A stretch of DNA of 64,000 bases from Escherichia coli (lineage in GTDB: Bacteria; Pseudomonadota; Gammaproteobacteria; Enterobacterales; Enterobacteriaceae): the NCBI RefSeq assembly GCF_050920415.1, contig NZ_CP169309.1; one strand, written 5' to 3'. How positions within the stretch are numbered: the stretch's first letter is position 1; every line of letters starts with the position of its first letter. The notes under the pieces were generated by a model. That model worked only from the letters and a program-made list of their open reading frames with translations, was not told where the DNA came from and did no database searches. The position numbers were made by a program, and so were the translations under genes. Positions 3,301 to 48,528 of this stretch are shown here, piece by piece.

Positions 3301-4788
3301 TTAAATCACCTCTTCGATAACCCACACGCTGACGCTGCCGCCGTTGCAAAAGAAGGTCGCTTCGCCGTTTTCGTCGGTTACTACACTTTCTTGCCGGTTC
3401 CCCAGAAAATCACGCCAGGTTTTATTGCCGTAATTCTCTCCTAAATGAATGGTTTTTTCGCCATCATCTCCGTTCGACATGACCACCACGCAGCCGGGAT
3501 ATTCGTCGGTGCCACTGCGGCTAAAGGCAATGCAGTTCGGATGGTCGAAAAATAACGTCTGTACACCGTGGGCGAAACGCTGACGGGCGAGAATTAATTC
3601 ATCAAGTTGTTCGATTATTGGCATATCTATCGGATAGGTTTGCCCGTCACCACCGACATCTTCGTAATGTGCACCGTAGAGATCCGGATAGAACACCGAA
3701 GGAACGCCATTTTCCCGCAACAAAATTAGGGCGTACGCCAGCGGTTTAAACCACGGTTCGACCGGCGCTTCGAGGGCTTGCAACGGTTGGGTGTCGTGGT
3801 TGGCAACGAGGGTTACGGCGTGAAAAGGATCGGCTTCCACAAGCGTCCCAGTGAAAATCTGCGTCATGTCGTAGTCGCGTCCCATGCGCGATGCTTCATG
3901 GAATTTCATCTGCAGCGGCGCATCGAACAGCATGGTTTTGCCTTCCACCTGATCAATATACGTTTGCAGCTTATCAACTTCATGCGACCAGTATTCCGCC
4001 ACAATAAACAGCGGCTTTGGCGCAACTTCCTGTACGTGTTCGATCCACTCTTTATAAAACCACGCCGGAATATGTTTGACCGCATCAAGACGAAAACCGT
4101 CGCATTGCGTTTGTTCCATCACCCAGCGCGCCCAGTATTTAATCTCTTCCGTCACGGCATGATTGCGAAAATCGATATTCTCGCCCATCAGGTAATCGAA
4201 ATTACCGAGTTCATCATCAACCTGATCGTTCCAGCCTTCGCCGGTGTAGTCGTTAACAATTTTAAAAATGCCATCTTCATCAGGATTTTCGATATGGTCG
4301 ATACCGCTAAAACATTTGAAATCCCAGATAAACTGTGAGTATTGCCCGGCACGGGCGGGGAAGGTGTAACGCGTCCAGCCTTCGCATTCAATGATTTCTT
4401 CATCAATTTGCGTACGGTCGTCAGCATTAACGCGCTGCACGCGAATAGCTTCTTTTTCATCCGCGCCCATTTTGTGATTGACTACCACGTCCAGCAGCAC
4501 CGCAATGTCATTACGTTTCAGGGCGTCAATGGCGGCCAGCAGTTGTGCTTTATCGCCATATTTAGTAGGGATGCTGCCTTTCTGATCAAACTCGCCTAAA
4601 TCAAATAAATCATAGGAGTCGTAGCCGACCGAATACCCGCCCGATGCGCCTTTATAGGCGGGCGGCAACCAGACCATATTGATACCAATATCATTAAAAC
4701 CGTCGGCGCGCTCGGCCAGTTCAGGCCAGAGCTTACCGCCTTCCGGGTAATACCAGTGAAAACATTGTAACAGCGTGGGATTACGCAT
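3301..4788 (-). CDS. amyA: Cytoplasmic alpha-amylase
   Basis: 495 aa ORF with glycoside hydrolase family 13 motifs; no signal peptide. Confidence 0.9.
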
Positions 4789-5656: not shown

Positions 5657-7072
5657 TTATTTCGAGTTGCTATTTGAGGTGTCGAACTGCTGTGTCAGAT
5701 AGCTACTGGTGGAGTTAAGCGAGTTCATTAACACATCTAATTGGGTGAACTGGGCTTTATAGCGCGTCATTAAGGTATCGATACGCTCACTGGCTGCGTT
5801 GTACTGGTCGGTCAAATTATTCAGCGTTTTGCTGACGCCATCTTTTGCGGCCTGGATTATCCCGGTGGAAGAGAGCCAACTGGTTAGGTTGCTACTAATG
5901 CCGGTGGTTACCCCTGTACTTTTACCGTCACCTATAAACATTTCACCGATGCCAGTGGCATCTTTTTTTAGCGCCGTTTGCAGTTTGTCGGTCGCGATTT
6001 CCAGCTTGCCGGTACTGGCATCGCTGGTAATGCCAATCTGTGCCAGCGTTTTATAGTTTGAACTGCTGTGAGTATTGGCGAGCAAGGTTTTAAGCTGAGT
6101 CTGGATGGTACGCAGTGTGGAGTCACCGAGTAATGCGCCATTGCTGGAGTCCTGACTCTCTGCTCCGGCATCGACAGCGGTGTATTTGGTTAAGCTGCTG
6201 AACGTATCCTGCAATGAGTTATAGGCATCCACCCACGCTTTAACCGCATTTTCAGCTTTGGATGTGTCTTTACTGATGGTCAGTGTCTGATTACCGGTGG
6301 TGACGTCATTCAGGTTGAGGGTGATATCTTCCAGCGCGTCGCTGATAGTGTTACTACTGTTTTCAATCTCAACGTTATTGACTGTCAGTTTGGCGTTTTG
6401 CGCAGTGACGCTTTCAATCATGCCATTGCTGCTATCACCCGACGTTCCGTTGTAACCCATAAAACTTTCCAGGGCGCTGTCGCCGCTGACGCTAAGATTC
6501 ATAGCGTTATCGCTGCCCGTATCGTTAGCGGTGATGGACAGACGATATTCGCCGTTTCCCACATTGATGATACTGGCGCTGACACCAGCTTTGGCGTTGT
6601 TAATGGCATCGCGAATGCCGGAAAGTGACGAGTTACCCGCGCTGATATCAATCGTGACCGGATCTTTACCGCCGCCTTGTTGGATGGTCAGTACGCTATC
6701 GCTGGTGGCGATGGCGGCTTTACTGTCTTTTTGACTATTTTTTGTTGTCAGCGTCTGTGCCTGCGCCAGTTGGCTAACGCTAATGGTGTATTTCCCGGCA
6801 ATCGCGCTGCCCGTGGTGGTGGCGCTGAAAGCCGATGAACTGCTGGTGGTTGAGGTGGCGGTAAATAAATCGGCTTTATTCAGTGCTGTGTTGGCTGTCT
6901 GGAAACTCTCTAGTGCACTTTTCAGCGTCCCGTAGGCGCTCAGTTTCGCGGTGTAAGAGCTTTGCTGTTTTGATATCGGCGTCAGGGTAGATTTTTCTGC
7001 CGCCTCCAGACTGTCAAGGATGCTGCTTAAGTCCAGCCCCGACCCAACCCCAAGCGTTGAAATACTAGCCAT
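5657..7072 (-). CDS. fliD: Flagellar filament cap protein FliD
   Basis: 471 aa ORF with conserved FliD termini. Confidence 0.9.
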   Translation of the reverse strand: MASISTLGVGSGLDLSSILDSLEAAEKSTLTPISKQQSSYTAKLSAYGTLKSALESFQTANTALNKADLFTATSTTSSSSAFSATTTGSAIAGKYTISVSQLAQAQTLTTKNSQKDSKAAIATSDSVLTIQQGGGKDPVTIDISAGNSSLSGIRDAINNAKAGVSASIINVGNGEYRLSITANDTGSDNAMNLSVSGDSALESFMGYNGTSGDSSNGMIESVTAQNAKLTVNNVEIENSSNTISDALEDITLNLNDVTTGNQTLTISKDTSKAENAVKAWVDAYNSLQDTFSSLTKYTAVDAGAESQDSSNGALLGDSTLRTIQTQLKTLLANTHSSSNYKTLAQIGITSDASTGKLEIATDKLQTALKKDATGIGEMFIGDGKSTGVTTGISSNLTSWLSSTGIIQAAKDGVSKTLNNLTDQYNAASERIDTLMTRYKAQFTQLDVLMNSLNSTSSYLTQQFDTSNSNSK

Positions 7073-39405: not shown

Positions 39406-41157
39406 ATGATTCAGGACGCTTTTGTGCGCCAGCGTGCGCGGCAACTTTACTGGCAGGGTTATCCGCCCGCAGAAATATCACGTCTGATGGGAATAAACCC
39501 GAACACGATTTATGCGTGGAAAAAACGCGACCAGTGGGATGAAACGCCACCCGTGCAGCGTGTCACGCAGTCCATCGATGCGCGCCTCATCCAGCTCACT
39601 GAAAAACAGAATAAAACAGGTGGTGACTTCAAGGAAATAGACCTGCTGACCCGGCAGCTTAAAAAACTGCATGATGGCCAGCCGGATGCGACGGCCACAG
39701 GAAAGAAAGGCCGGGCGAAAAAGCTTAAAAATCATTTCACGCCGGAACAGATTGCCGCACTGCGGGAAAAAATCATCAGCAGGCTGGAGTGGCATCAGCG
39801 GGGCTGGTTTGACTCCCTGACCCTTTGCAGGGAAGCAGGGATACGTAACAGGATGATCCTGAAATCCCGACAGATTGGGGCGACCTGGTATTTTGCACAG
39901 GAAGCGCTGCTGATGGCGCTGCGTGACGATGTGGCGCAACCTTACCAGCGTAACCAGATTTTTTTGTCTGCGTCGCGTCGTCAGGCGTTCCAGTTTAAAA
40001 GCATTATTCAGAAGGCCGCGGCTGAAGTTGATGTGGAGTTGAAAGGGGGCGATAAAATCATCCTCTCCAACGGCGCAGAGCTGCATTTTCTCGGCACTTC
40101 TGCTGCGTCGGCACAGTCCTATACGGGCAATTTTTATTTTGATGAATTTTTCTGGGTCAGTCGCTTTGCTGAACTGCGCAAGGTGGCTGGCGCTATGGCA
40201 ACCCTCAGCGGACTGCGGCGCACCTACTTCTCCACGCCATCCACCGAAACGCACGAGGCATACGCCTACTGGAACGGCGACCGCTGGAACGAGAAAAAGG
40301 CCACGCATAAACGCCAGCGTTTTTCTGTGGACTGGAAAACGCTGCATAACGGGCTTATCTGCCCTGACCGGACGTGGCGGCAAATTGTCACGCTGGAAGA
40401 TGTGGTTAATCACGGCTGGAAACACACCGATATCGACGAAATTCGTGATGAAAACACCGAAGACGAGTTCCTCAATCTCTATATGTGTGAGTTTGTCCGC
40501 GAAGGGGAATCGGCATTTAACCTGAATATCCTGATTGGCTGCGGTGTTGACGGATACGACGACTGGAAAGACTGGAAACCTTTTGCTCCCCGCCCGATGG
40601 GGAATCGTCCGGTATGGATTGGGTATGACGCAAACGGCAGCAGTGGCAACGGCGACAGCGGCGCTGTGTCCGTGGTGGTTCCTCCGTCTGTTCCTGGTGG
40701 CCGTTTTCGAACGGTGGAGACGCGACGCGCTCAGGGGCTGGAGTTTGAAGAACAGGCCAGAGTCATTGAAGAGTTCACGTGTCGCTACAACGTGGAACAC
40801 ATCGGCATTGATGTGACGGGCGGGAACGGGGAGGCTGTTTATCAGATAGTGAAACGGTTTTTCCCTGCCGCTATTCCGTACACCTTCACGCTGTCATCAA
40901 AACGGTCGCTGGTACTGAAAATGCTGCAAATAATGCGTGCCGGGCGGTGGGAATACGATCGCGCCGAACGCGAGCTGGTCGCGGCCTTTAACGCCGTGCG
41001 TAAGGTGAAAACACCGGGCGGCTTTATCACTTACGAAACGGACCGCGCGAGGGGGATCAGCCACGGCGACCTTGCGTGGGCAACCATGCTTGCTGTCATT
41101 AACGAACCAATTGGCGGCGAAGGAGAAAACGAGCGTTTCACGGTTATGGAGTTCTGA
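39406..41157 (+). CDS. Terminase ATPase (large) subunit gpP-like
   Basis: 583 aa, divergent from gpO as in P2. Confidence 0.9.
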   Translation: MIQDAFVRQRARQLYWQGYPPAEISRLMGINPNTIYAWKKRDQWDETPPVQRVTQSIDARLIQLTEKQNKTGGDFKEIDLLTRQLKKLHDGQPDATATGKKGRAKKLKNHFTPEQIAALREKIISRLEWHQRGWFDSLTLCREAGIRNRMILKSRQIGATWYFAQEALLMALRDDVAQPYQRNQIFLSASRRQAFQFKSIIQKAAAEVDVELKGGDKIILSNGAELHFLGTSAASAQSYTGNFYFDEFFWVSRFAELRKVAGAMATLSGLRRTYFSTPSTETHEAYAYWNGDRWNEKKATHKRQRFSVDWKTLHNGLICPDRTWRQIVTLEDVVNHGWKHTDIDEIRDENTEDEFLNLYMCEFVREGESAFNLNILIGCGVDGYDDWKDWKPFAPRPMGNRPVWIGYDANGSSGNGDSGAVSVVVPPSVPGGRFRTVETRRAQGLEFEEQARVIEEFTCRYNVEHIGIDVTGGNGEAVYQIVKRFFPAAIPYTFTLSSKRSLVLKMLQIMRAGRWEYDRAERELVAAFNAVRKVKTPGGFITYETDRARGISHGDLAWATMLAVINEPIGGEGENERFTVMEF

Positions 41158-42203
41158 TGAGCAGAAAAAATAAAAAAGTGCGCATGAGTTCACGCATTGA
41201 TCTCGCTGATGCGCTCAGGAAAGAATCATCGCTCAGTGCATTCACATTTGATGGTCCTTATCGCCTGACCGGGCATGACCTGCTGGACAATATGTACTGT
41301 GCTGATAACGGGCGGTGGTATGAAACCCCGGTGGACTGGTACGGTCTGGCAAGAGCCGCCCGGCAAACGTCCTGGCATCAGTCTGCGCTTTACTTTAAGC
41401 GCAATGTATTGCTCGGTTGCTACATCCCGCACCCGCTGCTTTCCCGGCAGGATTTCTCGGCGCTGGCGCTGGACTGGTTTGTGTTCGGTAACGCATTCCT
41501 TGAGCTTCGAAGCAATATGCTCGGCGAACCGCTTAAATTACGGCACGCCCTGGCGAAATACATGCGACGCGGAAGCGATCTTGAATCATGGTGGTATGTG
41601 CAGGATGGCAAGGATGCGTTTCAGTTTCGCCCAGGCAAAGTGTGCCACCTGATGAATCCGGACATTAACCAGGAAATCTACGGCATGCCGGAATATCTCG
41701 GCGCATTACTCTCGGCCAGCCTGTCTCATTCGGCGGACATGTTCAGAAAACTGTATTACGACAACGGATCCCACGCCGGGTGCATCATCTACATCGGTGC
41801 AGCGCAGGTAAACCGCGAAAGCATGGACTCCCTGAAAGAAACGCTACAGGGTGCGCGTGGTGGTGGTGCGTTTAAAAACGTGCTCATTCATGCGCCCAAC
41901 GGGGGCAAAGAGGGGGTGCAAATTTTGCCGTTCCAGCAGATCACCGCAAAGGATGAGTTCATGAATGTTAAGGCGGCATCCCGTGATGATGTGCTGGCTG
42001 CGCACCGCGTTCCGCCGCAACTGATGGGGGCGATGCCGGGTGAAAAAAGTGCGTTTGGTGATGTGGAGAAGGCCGCGCGGGTTTACGCAATTAACGAGCT
42101 GATGCCCGTCATGGAGGCCATGAAGCATATCAATGACTGGCTTGGCGAAGAGGTGCTCCGCTTTAACCCTTACGCACTGCTGGACACCCAGCCCACATCC
42201 TGA
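41157..42203 (+). CDS. Portal protein gpQ-like
   Basis: 348 aa directly after the terminase gene. Confidence 0.9.
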   Translation: MSRKNKKVRMSSRIDLADALRKESSLSAFTFDGPYRLTGHDLLDNMYCADNGRWYETPVDWYGLARAARQTSWHQSALYFKRNVLLGCYIPHPLLSRQDFSALALDWFVFGNAFLELRSNMLGEPLKLRHALAKYMRRGSDLESWWYVQDGKDAFQFRPGKVCHLMNPDINQEIYGMPEYLGALLSASLSHSADMFRKLYYDNGSHAGCIIYIGAAQVNRESMDSLKETLQGARGGGAFKNVLIHAPNGGKEGVQILPFQQITAKDEFMNVKAASRDDVLAAHRVPPQLMGAMPGEKSAFGDVEKAARVYAINELMPVMEAMKHINDWLGEEVLRFNPYALLDTQPTS

Positions 42204-42694: not shown

Positions 42695-42955
42695 CTATAG
42701 CTTTGATGCAGGCTGGGCTAGATGTAAGGGTTGGACATACCAGCCTTTTGATAACCAACTCTCTGCAACATCTTTACTCCTTGTTATTGCTGGTATTCCG
42801 ATGCCGTTATTTACATGCATCCATGCTACTGGCTCTGCTTCCAGCGATGCCAGTGCAATTTCATAAGCACGGCGTTCAATATTGTCTCGAACGTCCAGGC
42901 TGCCGATGCGCTCTTTGATTTCTTTAATCAGTTCTTTGTCGGTGAACGTTGTCAT
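42695..42955 (-). CDS. Hypothetical small protein (cargo operon gene 8)
   Basis: 86 aa ORF, last gene of the minus-strand operon; no recognised family. Confidence 0.45.
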   Translation of the reverse strand: MTTFTDKELIKEIKERIGSLDVRDNIERRAYEIALASLEAEPVAWMHVNNGIGIPAITRSKDVAESWLSKGWYVQPLHLAQPASKL

Positions 42956-42965
42956 GTGTTAGTCC

Positions 42966-43229
42966 TTATCCTGCTGTGCTTTCAACTGATGAGGGGAACA
43001 AAATCTTTTCATCAAATCCGGCATTCATATCATGGACAGCAACACACCAATCCATCGACGAACGATTATCAAGAGCCTCCATGATTTCATCCATGCGGCG
43101 TAGGTCATACAGGTAAATGTTTTTATCGCCAATGGTGTAAAAACCAATTTTTTTCGGTGATGGACAGCGATCAAGAACGTCCTGTAATTCGTTCAACCAT
43201 GCCTGTTCTTTTTTTGTCAACGTTGCCAT
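42966..43229 (-). CDS. Hypothetical small protein (cargo operon gene 7)
   Basis: About 87 aa from MATLTKKEQ; no recognised family. Confidence 0.45.
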   Translation of the reverse strand: MATLTKKEQAWLNELQDVLDRCPSPKKIGFYTIGDKNIYLYDLRRMDEIMEALDNRSSMDWCVAVHDMNAGFDEKILFPSSVESTAG

Positions 43230-43230
43230 A

Positions 43231-43449
43231 TCAGTTTTCCTTATACGGATTAATTTTATTGTGCAATGTGTTGAACGACGCCCATACCACGTCGTTATAC
43301 AATTCAATAACTGGCTCAATTATTTTCCCGATTGCCCAGATAAAAATTAGCGGGGATATCGGTATCATCAACACGATAAACAGAATGAGAAACAGAAATT
43401 CTATTGCTCTACTCTTTCGCGGATAGTTTTTCCTGAATAGTGTAGGCAC
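43231..43449 (-). CDS. Small single-pass membrane protein (cargo operon gene 6)
   Basis: 72 aa with one strongly hydrophobic helix (FLFLILFIVLMIPISPLIFIWAIG). Confidence 0.45.
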   Translation of the reverse strand: MPTLFRKNYPRKSRAIEFLFLILFIVLMIPISPLIFIWAIGKIIEPVIELYNDVVWASFNTLHNKINPYKEN

Positions 43450-43450
43450 C

Positions 43451-43645
43451 TCACTCTCCTTTAATGCGAAAGTGGTTTTTCCAGCGGTTTTGCGCCGCGC
43501 TGGGCTTTTTGCAAAAACCGCAATCCATCATCCCGTAATATTTCATCAACCCCATTCGTCGGTTGCTGAGTCTCACCCACTGCCATACGCCTGGATCGTT
43601 TCTGCGAACTAACAGAATCTTTGCTTTACGGTTGTTGGTTGCCAT
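43451..43645 (-). CDS. Hypothetical small basic protein (cargo operon gene 5)
   Basis: About 64 aa from MATNNRK; Cys/His-containing; start uncertain. Confidence 0.35.
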   Translation of the reverse strand: MATNNRKAKILLVRRNDPGVWQWVRLSNRRMGLMKYYGMMDCGFCKKPSAAQNRWKNHFRIKGE

Positions 43646-43961
43646 ATCCCCCTCCCTTGATACCAATATTTACAACATGGCAAGCCTCTTTGAGCACCCA
43701 GTCAACAGCGTCTTTCCATGCTCCGGTTTCGGCTGGCGGATTCTCACGCTTTACCAGTTCATAGAAACGTACTGCTCTAACCAGTCCATCTGACGGTTTT
43801 GCCTGTAGTGCAGCCTGAGCTATGCGGTATGCCTGGAGTATACGGGCGTCGTTGATATCCATTCCGAACGGAATTTCTGATGATTGTGATTCTGCATCTT
43901 CAAGCCTGGCAATTTCTTTACGTAAGAAGTATTTCAACTCTTGTTTTTGTTTTCTGTTCAT
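43626..43961 (-). CDS. Hypothetical protein (cargo operon gene 4)
   Basis: 111 aa ORF, no recognised family. Confidence 0.45.
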
Positions 43962-44290
43962 GCGTTTTTTCCCTTTTTGTCTGTCACTTCTCTCCTGATA
44001 ATTTCATTGCACAAATCCACGCACTCATTGCAGATGTAAACAGACGGTCCAGCAATCACCTTTGTGACTTCGTACTGGGATTTATTGCAGAAGCTGCAAT
44101 AAATCGTCTCCTCACCTGAAGTCCATGTTTTGCTGGTTTCGCCAGACATCAGTTGTTTGAGGTCTTTTTCACGACGAAGAACTATCTGGCCACATTCAGC
44201 TATTTTTTGGATGTTGACATTTTCTTCTTTCGCCAGCGCTTCCATCCGCTCAATCAGTCGCTGCGCTTTTTCTCTGTCAATGTGTTGCAT
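43958..44290 (-). CDS. Small protein with C-terminal ClpX-type C4 zinc-finger domain
   Basis: C-terminus [38 protein letters not shown] closely matches the recalled N-terminal zinc-binding domain of ClpX. Confidence 0.7.
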
Positions 44291-44353
44291 TGTGTCCCCC
44301 TTGTTTATGCTCCCGGGTTAAAGTCATCAGGGCGGATGCGCCCTGATGTTGTG

Positions 44354-44665
44354 TTATTCGGGAAATAACGCCCGGATATTTCCGGCCATCTGACTGGTTA
44401 TCTGTGCGGCTGATACTGGCTGTGACGCGGGGCGTTCTGTCCTGGGTTGTGTCACTGATAACGCCTCATCATCAGCCCATGCAGCCAGTCGGTAAGCCTC
44501 TGCCGGATTCATTTTCAGTAGTGCCAGCCCGGCCAGAAAAGCCACGCGTTGACCACTTTTGCGGGCTTCTGGTGTAAGGCTGTCCAGCCAGGCGCATGCT
44601 TCGCCTTCGTTCTTGACGGCGGCGGGCTTCAGATAGAAACTTATCCGTCTGGTTGGTGTCGTCAT
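44354..44665 (-). CDS. ParR-like DNA-binding adaptor
   Basis: About 103 aa from MTTPTRRISFYLKP...LDSLTPEARK...AFLAGLAL...ALFPE; resembles recalled plasmid R1 ParR. Confidence 0.65.
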   Translation of the reverse strand: MTTPTRRISFYLKPAAVKNEGEACAWLDSLTPEARKSGQRVAFLAGLALLKMNPAEAYRLAAWADDEALSVTQPRTERPASQPVSAAQITSQMAGNIRALFPE

Positions 44666-44669
44666 TGGC

Positions 44670-45629
44670 TTACTCCTTGTCCATTGCGTACAGCCCATTA
44701 ACCAGAGCAAACTGTGGCACCCCGTCCGCGATGAAAGTCGCATTAACTCCGCAGGCTTCGCGGATAGCGGGTGCCACAATCTCCGCCCCGCCACCGACAA
44801 CCATCACCCGCCCGTAACCCGAAAAACCCGCCAGCGCGCGGATCACGCGTTGTTTCAGTGTTTCTTCCTTTTCACGAATAACCGCCATCAGGCTGGCGTA
44901 ATGCGCGTCATTGTGGATGTGCTGGCGCAGCCAGGCTTCATCATGGCGATGTTCAATAATGGTATTGGCGATGTGGTGACTGGTGCGCATACCGTTAGTG
45001 GCCATCACCGACAGCACGGCATCGGCCATCAGTGAAACACCTACGTGTGGATCGCAAAACACCTGGCTGATACCTGCCAGTTGTCCCTGAACCTTTGCCA
45101 CATCCAGCGTGGTTCCGCCCAAATCCACAATCAGCAGGGATTCAAACGGACTCATGTCAGCCAGTGCCTTAAAGCCTGCCGGAATGGATTCAGGCATAAC
45201 CCGCACGTTACGGATAGTGAATGCCTCACCGTTCTGGTACTCCACCGGGCGCATAACGTTCGCTTTTTTGCGGTTGATGTTGGCCATGTCCGGCTGTGCG
45301 TTTGTGTCGAAATACTCGCTCAGTGGCAGGGTGACAACCACATCCACCTCCTGTGGCGTGATGCCTGATTTGACCAGCGCGTGATGAATGGCAATGACAT
45401 TCACATCGCTGTATTGGTATTGCGTGTCGGTCGTCTGGACAAAGCGATCGCTGACCGGATCAAAACCATAGCGCACGCCATCAAGCATGTAGTTCGCGGG
45501 CTGCGTGCCACCGAACGGCGCAGACCATTCCGACTTGAAGCTGTTCGGGCTGATGGCGTTGCGGCGTTCGCCGTTCTCAGTCCATGCCAGCTTGATGTTG
45601 GTGGAGCCGTCGTCGATACAAATTTTCAT
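44670..45629 (-). CDS. ParM/StbA-like actin-fold ATPase
   Basis: 319 aa; N-terminus MKICIDDGSTNIKLAW...ISPNSFK and ...YSDVNVIAIHHAL... closely resemble recalled plasmid R1 ParM. Confidence 0.85.
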   Translation of the reverse strand: MKICIDDGSTNIKLAWTENGERRNAISPNSFKSEWSAPFGGTQPANYMLDGVRYGFDPVSDRFVQTTDTQYQYSDVNVIAIHHALVKSGITPQEVDVVVTLPLSEYFDTNAQPDMANINRKKANVMRPVEYQNGEAFTIRNVRVMPESIPAGFKALADMSPFESLLIVDLGGTTLDVAKVQGQLAGISQVFCDPHVGVSLMADAVLSVMATNGMRTSHHIANTIIEHRHDEAWLRQHIHNDAHYASLMAVIREKEETLKQRVIRALAGFSGYGRVMVVGGGAEIVAPAIREACGVNATFIADGVPQFALVNGLYAMDKE

Positions 45630-45660: not shown

Positions 45661-45756
45661 TTTACGGGATTCTGAAATCCCGTTTTTGCCTGCTTTGTGC
45701 GCGCTTCATATATCACTGCGCGTTTTTTGCTCATTTACGGGATTCGTGAGTCCCGT
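45661..45756. promoter_or_regulatory. Two 20-bp palindromes upstream of parM (candidate parC-like centromere/operator)
   Basis: ACGGGATTCTGAAATCCCGT (45664..45683) and ACGGGATTCGTGAGTCCCGT (45737..45756), each preceded by TTT; the second overlaps the last codons of gene A. Confidence 0.5.
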
Positions 45757-48528
45757 TTCTGTCTGTTTTTTGTTTCCGCTGGTCAGGCCACCCCGCAGCA
45801 GGTCTGCTTTGCGGCTGGCGCGTTCAGTGGTTTCACTGATTCTCTGTGCGTGCTCTGCGTCGCGGATGGCGCGCAGCATGTCAGAAAGCACAGTAACGGG
45901 TGTTTTCATGGTGTTCTGGTCCTGCTGAAGTGTGGATGCCAGGCGTGCGGCGGCTTCAGGGTCTGATGCCCCCAGCTGTGCCAGATAGCTGGCGACCGGG
46001 TTATGGCGGATCTCCGTGCTGCTTACGCCATGATTACGGCTCAGGCGCTGCCAGAGCTGCGTGATTCGGCTGTCCGGGCGGGTATCCGGTTTGCGTACAA
46101 TTTCAAATCCCTGCGGTGCAATGATGCTGCCGTCAACGTACAGACTGCCGCCCCGTAACAGGTGCTGCATCTGTTGTTCACCGATATGCAGGCCGAGAGA
46201 TTCAGCAGACTCCCGCCATTCTTTAGCGAGTAATTCGTGGTTATCAGGCAAAGGCCGCTGCTGTTTGCGGCTCTGTGTCCAGCTCTGCATTTCATCACTG
46301 CTGTTTTTTGCCTGTTTGTCACGAAGCGAACGCATCAGCGCCCGGCGTTCGTGCCGTTTCAGTGAGCGCATCCATTCGTTCACTTCAACGCCGTCAGGGA
46401 GCTGCGGCCACGGTGCTGGCCGTTCTTCCGGCTGTTCTGTCCCGTTGTTGTCCGTTTCCTGTGCACGGGGACAGTTATTGCCACGAGTCCAAGGGGCGGC
46501 AGGGCCGCCCTGAAGGTCAAAACCATTTTCGTGGGCGTTGTCTCCCGGTTCTGGTTTACGTCTTACCAGCTTCCAGTTATCCGGATGCGTGCACACACGG
46601 GAGGATTCCCCGATGAGTGGTGACCAGATCCCGTAAATCTGTACGCTCTGTTCGCCGTAATCGTTCAGCTCATCTGCGAGGTCGTAGGCGGTGCGAATCA
46701 GGTAGTCCTTGCGTGGAACAAGCACGCCACCCTGTTTTTCAATGTAGGTGGCAAAACACCCGGCATCGGCGGCAGCGAGTACCGCATCCATTGCATCATC
46801 TTTCAGCCGTTGCGGGCCTTCCGGATTGCGTGCCATCTGGCTGGCAAGGCGGCGCAGTTCACGCCACACCTGACGGGAGGGGATGCCAAAGAACTGGAAC
46901 TGACGGACCCGGTGAAGGCGCGCCCAGCCGATGGCGCGCTCCACGCTCTCGGCCATTGATTTTCCGGTTTCGTGGTCAACGCGTGGCTTGCCCGTTTTCG
47001 GGTCGATGCCATCCACGGCGCGGCTGTCCAGGTTCTTTCCGATGTAGGTGGCGATGTAGCTGGTTGGTGTGCCTTTTGAGCCGTCGACATACTCCGCCTT
47101 AAAACGCGGAGTTATGTCATCGCCCAGCTCGTGGCGGTCCTCCTGAATGGCAATATCGCAGACGTGGGACACGATGGTTTCAATCTCGTCCGGATGTGCA
47201 AAGACCATCATATGCCAGTGCACAGTGCCGTCATGGTGAGGCTCCACCGTGCGGATGCCATACCAGCGCAGGCCGTCGCGGTTCAGTTTTTTGCGGACCG
47301 CCGCAAAAAACGTGTTAACCAGGTAATCGCTGGAGTCGCGCATGGTGGCCCCGTTCCATTTGGGGTTCGGATGACCGTTCTCCGTTGTTGCGTGGTATTT
47401 TGACGGGCAGGTGACGGTCAGAAACACCGCTCTGTCGCCACGGGCTTCGGCCAGAAGTTCCAGTCCCTTCATGGTGGCCATCATTTCTGCCTTACGGTGA
47501 ACCGGGTTACTTACTCCCGCGTAATACACCGTCTCGAGATCAATCGTGAACCCGTCTTCATTTTCCAGCATGAAACTTTTCAGGAAATCGCGTGTTTTCT
47601 CGCGCTGTGCGCGAAACTCGCTTAACGCGTCCTGGCTCAGATAGGGGGATGTTTTTCTGGAAACCAGACAGGCGGCGCGGAGTTGTTCTTCCCGCCACTC
47701 ACAACGTAACAGCCACAGTTTGCGTTTCCACCATTCCGCACAGGTCAAGCGAAGGATTGCGCCCGGCAGCAGCTCCGTGTCCGGTTCGTTCCTCCGGTCT
47801 TTGTCTGTTGTCAGTGCGTCATAATGTGGAGGCATGGCGTGCAGGTGTAACGCCATGCGGGCCAGCATCTGATAAGCCTTCAGGGTTACATCCATGGTCA
47901 GCTCGCCATCAGTCGCGCCAAAGCCATCGCAGAGTTTTTCGAAGGTGCTGCTGAACATCGCCGCCGTCATGGTGGCCAGCGTCTGTATCTGGTGTTTGTT
48001 GAGCTGCGGCAGGTAAAGCAAATCGTCCAGGCGTTCGCGTCCGGCAAGGGAGCGATAACCCGGTGTCAGCCAGCGGTGGTCGGTGCGGTCCAGACGTTCG
48101 AATATTTTGCGCAGGGTTCCGCACGCGTAGCGTTCAGCCTGCCAGCTCTTTTTGCCTTTCCGGCGATCGGCTTCCTGTTTTTTGCGCAGGAAGGAGAGGT
48201 GGCGAATAAGCGGATCGCGCAGATAGGACGGCAGCAGGCGCAGCGAGGCCATGGCTTCATCCACCGCGCCACGTGCCTGTTTTCTGGCGTCTCCTGCCAG
48301 TGTGATGGTTTTGTCCTGTTTTTCCTGTGCGTCCAGGCTTTTATTAATCAGGTTGCCCAGCGGCGTGGCGGAGAACGCCGCATCAGCCATTTCCTGGCGG
48401 CGCTCGTTCTCTGCCCGGTAGGCATCCAGCCAGGAGGAAAGCGCGGATTCAGGAGCGGGGATCCCCGTTCCTTCACGCCCCACTGCGTGGCGCGGTTGTT
48501 GCCAGTCCCTGATGTACTCTGCCGTCAT
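45706..48528 (-). CDS. Replication initiation endonuclease (P2 gpA-like, rolling-circle)
   Basis: 940 aa at the canonical position downstream of the early operon; longer than the ~760 aa I recall for P2 A. Confidence 0.8.
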   Translation of the reverse strand: MTAEYIRDWQQPRHAVGREGTGIPAPESALSSWLDAYRAENERRQEMADAAFSATPLGNLINKSLDAQEKQDKTITLAGDARKQARGAVDEAMASLRLLPSYLRDPLIRHLSFLRKKQEADRRKGKKSWQAERYACGTLRKIFERLDRTDHRWLTPGYRSLAGRERLDDLLYLPQLNKHQIQTLATMTAAMFSSTFEKLCDGFGATDGELTMDVTLKAYQMLARMALHLHAMPPHYDALTTDKDRRNEPDTELLPGAILRLTCAEWWKRKLWLLRCEWREEQLRAACLVSRKTSPYLSQDALSEFRAQREKTRDFLKSFMLENEDGFTIDLETVYYAGVSNPVHRKAEMMATMKGLELLAEARGDRAVFLTVTCPSKYHATTENGHPNPKWNGATMRDSSDYLVNTFFAAVRKKLNRDGLRWYGIRTVEPHHDGTVHWHMMVFAHPDEIETIVSHVCDIAIQEDRHELGDDITPRFKAEYVDGSKGTPTSYIATYIGKNLDSRAVDGIDPKTGKPRVDHETGKSMAESVERAIGWARLHRVRQFQFFGIPSRQVWRELRRLASQMARNPEGPQRLKDDAMDAVLAAADAGCFATYIEKQGGVLVPRKDYLIRTAYDLADELNDYGEQSVQIYGIWSPLIGESSRVCTHPDNWKLVRRKPEPGDNAHENGFDLQGGPAAPWTRGNNCPRAQETDNNGTEQPEERPAPWPQLPDGVEVNEWMRSLKRHERRALMRSLRDKQAKNSSDEMQSWTQSRKQQRPLPDNHELLAKEWRESAESLGLHIGEQQMQHLLRGGSLYVDGSIIAPQGFEIVRKPDTRPDSRITQLWQRLSRNHGVSSTEIRHNPVASYLAQLGASDPEAAARLASTLQQDQNTMKTPVTVLSDMLRAIRDAEHAQRISETTERASRKADLLRGGLTSGNKKQTETGLTNPVNEQKTRSDI

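Follow-up and report, generated by a model that had tools for sequence, protein, structure and literature searches.

A gene at positions 43958-44290 on the minus strand of a 64,000-nucleotide stretch of Escherichia coli DNA (contig NZ_CP169309.1 of assembly GCF_050920415.1; hereafter the window) encodes a protein of 110 residues in which a helical hairpin of its own kind is joined to a C-terminal zinc-binding domain (ZBD) of the ClpX type. The gene belongs to an element that was classified by its sequence as a P88-type P2-like prophage (Peduoviridae, genus Xuanwuvirus). We propose, with a probability that we put at roughly 0.4, that the phage keeps the protein as a soluble mimic of the ClpX N-domain that works as a decoy; by analogy with the isolated ClpX domain, it would tie up the adaptors and substrates that depend on the ZBD and so selectively weaken this arm of ClpXP proteolysis. 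The domain had already been recognized in annotation, whereas the family has not been described, nor have its conserved placement and putative decoy role.

Architecture and selection of the ZBD protein

The open reading frame started with ATG, comprised 110 codons and was equivalent to gp19 of phage P88. A Pfam search placed zf-C4_ClpX (PF06689) on residues 64-99 (E=8.9e-18, 64.4 bits, model positions 2-38 of 39), and a phmmer search of PDB sequences returned the ClpX ZBD entries 1ovx and 2ds5 as top matches with E of about 1e-19. The zinc-ligand cysteines C65, C68, C87 and C90 (CxxC...CxxC) were invariant across the family alignment. In the 38-residue ZBD core, 31 positions (82%) were identical to E. 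coli ClpX, so that the initial annotation had correctly placed the ClpX N-terminal C4 zinc finger at the C-terminal end of the protein and had slightly overstated the close likeness as near identity. These matches far exceed chance, and the C-terminal half is a bona fide zf-C4_ClpX domain. From the analogy with the isolated domain of ClpX, we infer that the protein binds zinc and dimerizes.

An AlphaFold2 model calculated from nine family sequences (mean predicted local distance difference test, pLDDT, 78) was composed of three parts. Codons 1-48 (44147-44290, minus) formed a family-specific helical hairpin with helices at residues 6-22 and 27-48 and pLDDT values of 80-91. Codons 49-60 (44111-44146, minus) formed a linker of variable length, with insertions in the relatives P0019 and P0125 and a pLDDT below 50 for residues 53-59. 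Codons 61-110 with the stop codon (43958-44110, minus) contained the C4 ZBD and a C-terminal helix. The predicted ZBD superposed on 2ds5, 2ds6 and 2ds8 with a root-mean-square deviation (rmsd) of 0.6-0.7 Å, a target template-modeling score of 0.88-0.92 and 75% identity, which agrees with the zinc-finger fold that had been expected. The hairpin at residues 1-48 matched nothing in Pfam or in PDB sequence profiles, as foreseen in the description of an unrelated region fused to the zinc finger, and a Foldseek search of PDB and BFVD found nothing for the protein besides the ZBD. The ClpX equivalogs TIGR00382 and NF003745 gave 50.2 bits against a cut-off of 370.75 and aligned at model positions 6-52 only; because they matched the first 50 or so positions alone and stayed below the cut-off, the 110-residue protein is not a ClpX unfoldase. 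The PHROG family of no assigned function phrog_6797 was matched at full length (E=1.5e-58, residues 1-106 on profile positions 5-107 of 107), and Pfam and NCBIfam scans gave ClpX-related matches only, with no membership in the Ira families (IraP, IraM or IraD).

Full-length relatives of the protein were few and came from enterobacteria. When a profile of the N-terminal 56 residues was compared with 1.84 billion representative proteins, 19 matches were found. All inspected intact matches of family size ended in a ZBD, and the other inspected ones were truncated or frameshifted copies, the inspection having left out a few weak matches in long proteins (603-1176 residues). Since the inspected intact N-terminal matches all end in a ZBD, the combination of hairpin and ZBD defines a dedicated family (PHROG 6797). 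Across this family the ZBD core was 53-89% identical to that of E. coli ClpX, and 76-89% in most lineages, whereas the N-terminal half had diverged to 23-67% identity. The ratio of nonsynonymous to synonymous substitution rates (dN/dS) was about 0.2 overall, 0.06-0.27 in the ZBD and 0.17-0.30 in the hairpin, at a deep divergence with saturated synonymous sites. Both domains are under purifying selection, and the gene is a real, maintained one.

The 153 bp that encode the ZBD were compared by blastn (word size 11) with 5426 complete E. coli genomes. Only family genes were matched, in 220 genomes (about 4%) and at 127 chromosomal and 105 plasmid places, and clpX was never matched. The carriers included O145, O55:H7 and ST131 strains, and the P88-type allele was present in 111 genomes. 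A recent capture of host clpX was rejected on this result. Because DNA similarity to clpX was absent, dN/dS was low and synonymous sites were saturated, the likeness to ClpX is old and has been kept by selection; as read from the sequences, it is not the leftover of a recent capture.

The docking patch and the proposed decoy

The ZBD of ClpX is a dimer on which SspB, RssB and trigger factor dock at a hydrophobic patch around F16 and I46, and the degradation of lambda O needs this domain (PMC7804408). It also binds UmuD', MuA, FtsZ and an exposed degron of the antitoxin MqsA, for which L12, L13 and H23 are important, mutation of L12 and H23 impairing the recognition of MqsA (PMC8808172). Residues F16, I46 and L13 of ClpX were equivalent to F67, I97 and I63 of the window protein, and F67 and I97 were nearly invariant in the family. 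The isolated ZBD of ClpX dimerizes and, when supplied in trans, inhibits RssB-mediated breakdown of sigma-S by ClpXP (Micevski et al. 2020, PMC7226468). Because of this inhibition, competitive titration is the best-supported mechanism for the phage protein. The titration of adaptors or substrates suggested in the initial annotation has in this way acquired an in vitro precedent by analogy, which supports its interpretation in part.

In the proposed mechanism, the protein would form a zinc-stabilized dimer, like the isolated ClpX ZBD, and would show the same hydrophobic docking patch as ClpX. The ligands of the patch would be adaptors (the SspB tail and RssB) and N-domain-dependent substrates (lambda O, MuA, UmuD', FtsZ and unfolded MqsA), and competition for them would selectively slow adaptor- or N-domain-dependent proteolysis by ClpXP while sparing degradation of the ssrA type. 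The N-terminal hairpin may add avidity by further oligomerization, or specificity by binding a particular partner. The pay-off is a matter of speculation: a phage or host protein could be stabilized in early lytic development, toxin-antitoxin or abortive-infection responses triggered by ClpXP (for example Phd-Doc) could be blocked, or sigma-S could be raised in lysogens. The gene was located at the distal end of the P2 early (gpA) transcription unit or inside early accessory arrays of the ea type, positions that are typical of host-takeover and cargo genes. A broader proposal, which we regard as tentative and rather doubtful, is that P2-like and D6/PhiR41-type temperate phages, including plasmid prophages, keep the mimic of the ClpX docking domain as a selective anti-protease decoy that stabilizes chosen proteins. 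These could be antitoxins that are labile to ClpXP (Phd, MqsA), sigma-S by way of RssB, or a replication factor; abortive-infection and toxin-antitoxin responses that ClpXP triggers would be disarmed, or the stress physiology of the lysogen reprogrammed, and the fast-diverging hairpin would set the target specificity.

ClpXP controls sigma-S, SOS mutagenesis (UmuD'), cell-division proteins, antitoxin turnover, lambda O and the Mu transposase, all of them via the ZBD docking domain. A decoy, if real, would be a new viral route to adjusting a host protease, in which the receptor is imitated and the active site is not blocked, and would also be a genetic tool at hand for selectively inhibiting the part of ClpXP activity that depends on adaptors. 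An effect on stress tolerance, mutagenesis or the firing of toxin-antitoxin systems would concern pathogens, because the carriers make up about 4% of E. coli genomes and include the O145, O55:H7 and ST131 strains mentioned above.

Several points weigh against a decoy. The inhibition in trans took 5-20 µM ZBD against 0.6 µM ClpXP in vitro (PMC7226468), and at such a low affinity the decoy would require high expression or extra avidity. Residues L12 and H23 of ClpX, at or near the SspB site, were replaced by T62 and Y73 in the window protein, and the position of H23 was variable in the family (H, Y, F or T). An AlphaFold2 prediction of a fused homodimer, in which a (GGGGS)6 linker connected the two copies and the alignment was paired, was of low confidence and uninformative about the dimer geometry (pLDDT of 55, predicted template-modeling score, pTM, of 0.41). 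The conserved 50-residue N-terminal domain was always attached, which a pure decoy leaves unexplained, and searches of the full-text literature yielded neither an experiment on a family member nor work on any free-standing ZBD protein of phages. ClpX-type ZBDs are also found in proteins other than ClpX, such as 136-residue actinobacterial proteins with a C-terminal region that appeared by inspection to be of the helix-turn-helix (HTH) type, and a ClpX-type ZBD stands among the domains named in a paper on the architecture of cyanobacterial sigma factors. Because it is fused to HTH-like regions and listed in sigma factors, the ZBD could be simply a dimerizing zinc module.

If that were so, the function would reside in the hairpin, which might bind some protein of the phage or the host that has no relation to ClpXP, as small early proteins of the ea/Ea22 type may do. 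The hairpin was conserved, specific to the family and under purifying selection (dN/dS as given above, 0.17-0.30), the docking positions H23 and L12 were not conserved, and the neighboring genes were ea/Ea22-like without assigned function, all of which would suit a mere dimerizer. However, a generic module need not stay 76-89% identical to the ZBD of the host ClpX after synonymous saturation, and the exposed patch residues F67 and I97 were kept. We consider a generic zinc-dimer role to be on the unlikely side, although it is a serious alternative to a natural mimic of the ClpX receptor, which would be notable to specialists in proteolysis and in phages.

The ZBD dimer of ClpX is stable. A direct action on ClpX, including the hetero-dimer raised in the initial annotation, would involve either a mixed N-domain dimer that poisons the trimer of dimers or docking of the hairpin on the hexamer, with the unfoldase blocked or re-targeted. 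The hydrophobic positions of the ZBD core were identical or conservatively substituted relative to ClpX, so a mixed dimer is sterically plausible, and the hairpin could give a second contact. Nevertheless, the ClpX ZBD dimer is reported to form rapidly (PMC7226468). As the dimer is also stable, each of the two proteins would be expected to pair with itself on synthesis. Direct action on ClpX appears improbable to us, and the hetero-dimer remained unsupported, while the observation of the domain itself was confirmed.

Placement in the gpA-gpQ cargo hotspot

The DNA around the gene was 98% identical to Escherichia phages P88 and PhiR44_2, and copies of the ZBD protein that were 100% identical were found in P88 (gp19) and in UMNF18. 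Phage P88 is reported to have been recovered by induction (PMC5285337). On the minus strand the order was gpA, parM, parR, the ZBD gene, a gene of 111 codons and several small genes of the ea/Ea22, DUF4014 and phrog_1714 types. The left border of the P2 gpA-gpQ hotspot was formed by the replication endonuclease gene gpA (45706-48528, minus; P88 gp16) and the right border by the convergent portal gene gpQ (41157-42203, plus; P88 gp23). Within these borders lay parM, encoding an actin-like segregation ATPase (44670-45629, minus; phrog_691, E=2e-90; P88 gp17), and parR, encoding the partition adaptor directly upstream of the ZBD gene (44354-44665, minus; phrog_2515, E=6e-58; P88 gp18). Downstream, the 111-residue protein without assigned function (43626-43961, minus), one of several alternative neighbors, was encoded by a gene whose start overlapped the stop of the ZBD gene, and small ea/Ea22-like accessory genes (DUF4014, phrog_1714 and phrog_660/5117 types; 42695-43666, minus) filled the hotspot. 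An inverted repeat, ACGGGA-N8-TCCCGT, occurred twice 73 bp apart, at 45664-45683 and 45737-45756, with one copy within the 3' end of gpA and the other in the 76-bp spacer between gpA and parM. By its sequence the pair is a candidate for the parC centromere and ParR operator of the prophage ParMR system.

The interval between gpA and gpQ lies next to cos and is the diversity hotspot described for P2-like phages, in which the reference P2 has old and tin and more than a quarter of the E. coli P2-like prophages have partition genes; the same preprint makes no mention of the ZBD gene, ClpX or zinc (Rousset et al., 10.1101/2021.01.21.427644). Eight proteins of the locus, namely the ZBD protein and seven neighbors, matched no model of PADLOC-DB v2 at E<=0.01. 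A known anti-phage defense system was rejected on these two results. An older RefSeq/GenBank name, 'carboxylate--amine ligase', was still attached to P88 gp19 (NC_026014.1), to D6 gp034 (orf93, NC_050154.1) and to hundreds of protein-cluster members; this identity was rejected, as no profile search backed the name, and the current PGAP name is 'ClpX C4-type zinc finger protein'.

The initial annotation had described a free-standing domain in the prophage cargo directly 3' of parR, and indeed the two genes were on the same strand and 63 bp apart. This spacer (44291-44353, minus) contained a GC-rich hairpin with a 10-bp stem at 44325-44348 and a ribosome-binding site, GGGGGA, at 44295-44300, 5 nt before the ATG of the ZBD gene. 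No T-run followed the hairpin on the coding strand when it was checked as a terminator, and a scan for sigma-70 consensus sequences gave no convincing promoter upstream of the ZBD gene. At the other end, the TGA stop of the ZBD gene shared bases with the ATG of the next gene in an ATGA at 43958-43961. A common operon with parR, which had also been claimed, was consistent with strand and spacing, the sole basis of that claim; the hairpin lies between the two genes. The spacer was also the left edge of the variable cargo, since homology with parMR phages devoid of the ZBD gene started at about 44328-44361.

The genomic context of the family was sampled by single inspection of 23 loci and a marker census of 80 IMG/VR loci. 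In the census, 31 loci were of the P88 type with the order gpA-parM-parR-ZBD, and the ZBD gene was followed by the 111-codon gene in 19 of them, by convergent phd-doc in 4, by a gene for a 174-residue protein in 4 and by other or unrecognized genes in 4. Nine of the 80 loci came from other P2-like lineages. In these, together with loci from genome assemblies (L007-L011, L021 and L023), the gpA-gpQ slot was again the one occupied, by divergent alleles of 36-70% identity that lay 3' of gpA and of a small, conserved gene of the backbone (about 100-145 codons) and before the convergent ogr-like and portal genes. Most of these loci had no parMR (L007-L011, L021, L023, L055/56, L088 and L100). A further 30 of the 80 belonged to the D6/PhiR41_1 type, a branch about 50% identical that was found in early accessory arrays of the Ead/Ea22/EaA/DUF4752 type, away from partition genes; D6 is a plasmid prophage. 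In the remaining 10, the ZBD part alone was matched, and these were not family members.

Beside parM and parR, the ZBD protein might be thought an accessory part of the ParMR partition system. In every inspected P88-type locus of E. coli the order parM-parR-ZBD was kept with a fixed spacer of 63 bp, and in locus L097 a parM that was 99% identical was followed by a divergent parR (56%) and a divergent ZBD gene (36%). However, the family occupied the hotspot without parMR in the loci listed above, the D6-type arrays were not beside partition genes, and many parMR Xuanwuviruses, P884B11, 520873 and Shae_phiSM among them, had near-identical parMR followed by other cargo after parR, with the break of homology (about 44328-44361) at the hairpin. 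In locus L090 a parR remnant (36% identity, no intact open reading frame) was found between phd and the ZBD gene, and recombination with breakpoints within parR is the simplest explanation for the hint of linkage in L097 and L090. Because the family occurs without parMR and parMR occurs without the ZBD gene, the tie to parR is positional and not functional; any functional link to partition was contradicted by this distribution. A role as a partition accessory was rejected for want of obligate co-occurrence with parM and parR, and we give it hardly any credence.

Two Salmonella-type backbones had an upstream gene that was 85% identical and very different ZBD alleles, a signature of cassette exchange. 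The downstream neighbor varied over the loci, being a gene for the 111-residue, a 174-residue or a 176-residue protein, DUF4752, convergent phd-doc, or none. The overlapping downstream gene was not conserved as a neighbor, and on that ground its pairing with the ZBD gene as a type II toxin-antitoxin system was rejected. The ZBD gene is a self-contained cargo module without a conserved partner, and its adjacency to parR is positional.

A neighboring toxin-antitoxin or defense module could nevertheless be what the protein serves, for instance by shielding Phd so that the phage's own Phd-Doc stays silent in the lytic cycle. The phd-doc pair adjoined the ZBD gene in 18 of the 111 E. coli genomes with the P88-type allele and in 4 P88-type IMG/VR loci, a doc gene 58% identical stood with phd, in a different orientation, beside a strongly diverged member of the family from another P2-like lineage (L012/L090), and phage D6 had both doc and a ZBD gene. 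Phd of phage P1 is given as a substrate of ClpXP (Lehnherr and Yarmolinsky 1995, cited in PMC4803016), which would suit such a role. However, most ZBD-gene loci were without phd-doc, P1, P7, SJ46 and RCS47 had doc without a ZBD gene, and no PADLOC model fitted the ZBD gene or its neighbors. We regard a dedicated modulator of this kind as quite improbable. As an observation on the hotspot itself, phd-doc was located between gpA and gpQ at 3079-3830 of L014 (E. coli C3) and at 4825-5630 of L090, adjoining very different ZBD alleles, with Doc 58% and Phd about 28% identical between the two loci.

Relation to known systems and other observations

Compared with the N-domain of ClpX, the phage domain has the same predicted C4 zinc-binding fold (75-82% identity and 0.6-0.7 Å predicted rmsd) and retains the positions of F16, I46 and L13, the last as isoleucine. 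Unlike ClpX, the protein has no AAA+ module, carries the ZBD at the C-terminal instead of the N-terminal end, behind its private hairpin, has substitutions at L12 and H23, and is encoded by phage DNA unrelated to host clpX. The isolated ClpX ZBD of Micevski et al. 2020 (PMC7226468) would be alike in being a free dimer that competes for RssB, SspB and substrates; it is, however, a laboratory construct, whereas the phage version occurs in nature as a gene and has a further domain. The RssB anti-adaptors IraP, IraM and IraD would be comparable as small proteins that alter substrate stability by sequestering a delivery component, but they bind the adaptor through unrelated folds and have no kinship in sequence or fold with the phage protein, which copies the docking domain of the protease itself. 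AppY is a prophage-linked precedent for the control of sigma-S turnover. Phages are known to modulate host AAA+ proteases, as lambda CIII does with FtsH and T4 PinA and T7 Gp4.5 do with Lon. These would resemble the ZBD protein in their mode of action only, without kinship in sequence or fold. An isolated ClpX ZBD was reportedly used as an in vitro competitor by Wojtyra et al. in 2003. The P2 gpA-gpQ cargo (old, tin, defense systems and par genes) shares the cos-adjacent locus and its variability, but the ZBD protein has no enzymatic effector domain and no PADLOC match. From its sequence matches, the protein is classified neither as ClpX nor as a Par component, a catalogued defense protein or an Ira anti-adaptor.

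Other phage proteins consist essentially of a ClpX-type zinc finger, among them phrog_12435 (named 'protease'), phrog_5259, a 65-residue 'Clp protease' of Pseudomonas phage PP9W2 and the 73-residue product of Klebsiella phage ST846-OXA48phi9.2 described next. These mini-proteins differ from the window protein in having no N-terminal hairpin and only 35-50% identity, and are likewise uncharacterized. An unannotated open reading frame of 73 codons at 4001-4222 (plus) of L006, from the lambdoid Klebsiella phage ST846-OXA48phi9.2 (MK416022.1), encoded nearly nothing but a ClpX-type zinc finger; it was located between cII and the replication-initiator gene, where the record has a 51-codon frame on the opposite strand. 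In four proteins of 136-182 residues (P0031, P0061, P0085 and P0116), from metagenomic and genomic sources and probably actinobacterial, an N-terminal ClpX-type ZBD was joined to a conserved HTH-like C-terminal region (GVSWARIGEALGMTRQSAWERF), and because of this joining the ZBD appears to be reused as a module outside ClpX.

Several P88-like parMR sequences had been deposited as plasmids, namely NZ_CP148288.1 (34,461 bp) and NZ_CP049283.1 (26,762 bp), and another was found inside the 129-kb plasmid pCREC455-3 (L015). These records fit the suggestion that, by means of parMR, some P2-like prophages can persist outside the chromosome. In the Salmonella-type P2-like prophage L008, a direct repeat of 71 nt, 97% identical between its copies at 5891-5961 and 6390-6460, flanked the ZBD-family gene (CCGCTCGCCGCAAGCCCTGATTA..GAGCCGCACGGCGGCGAGTCTGTCAGGGCGAGGAAGCGGAATTACT), and L010 had one copy, at about 6345-6415, 3' of the gene. 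Part of the repeat, GGCGAGG.AGCGGAA, presumably resembles the P2 cos end, and insertion of the cassette may have left the repeat behind as a duplicated element of the cos or terminator kind. On the metagenome contig L020, a divergent family member (P0130, 206-535) was followed at 628-963 by a second open reading frame, of 111 codons, with a weak ClpX N-terminal match, a CxxC...CxxC motif and a helical tail, and the two may be tandem ZBD paralogues.

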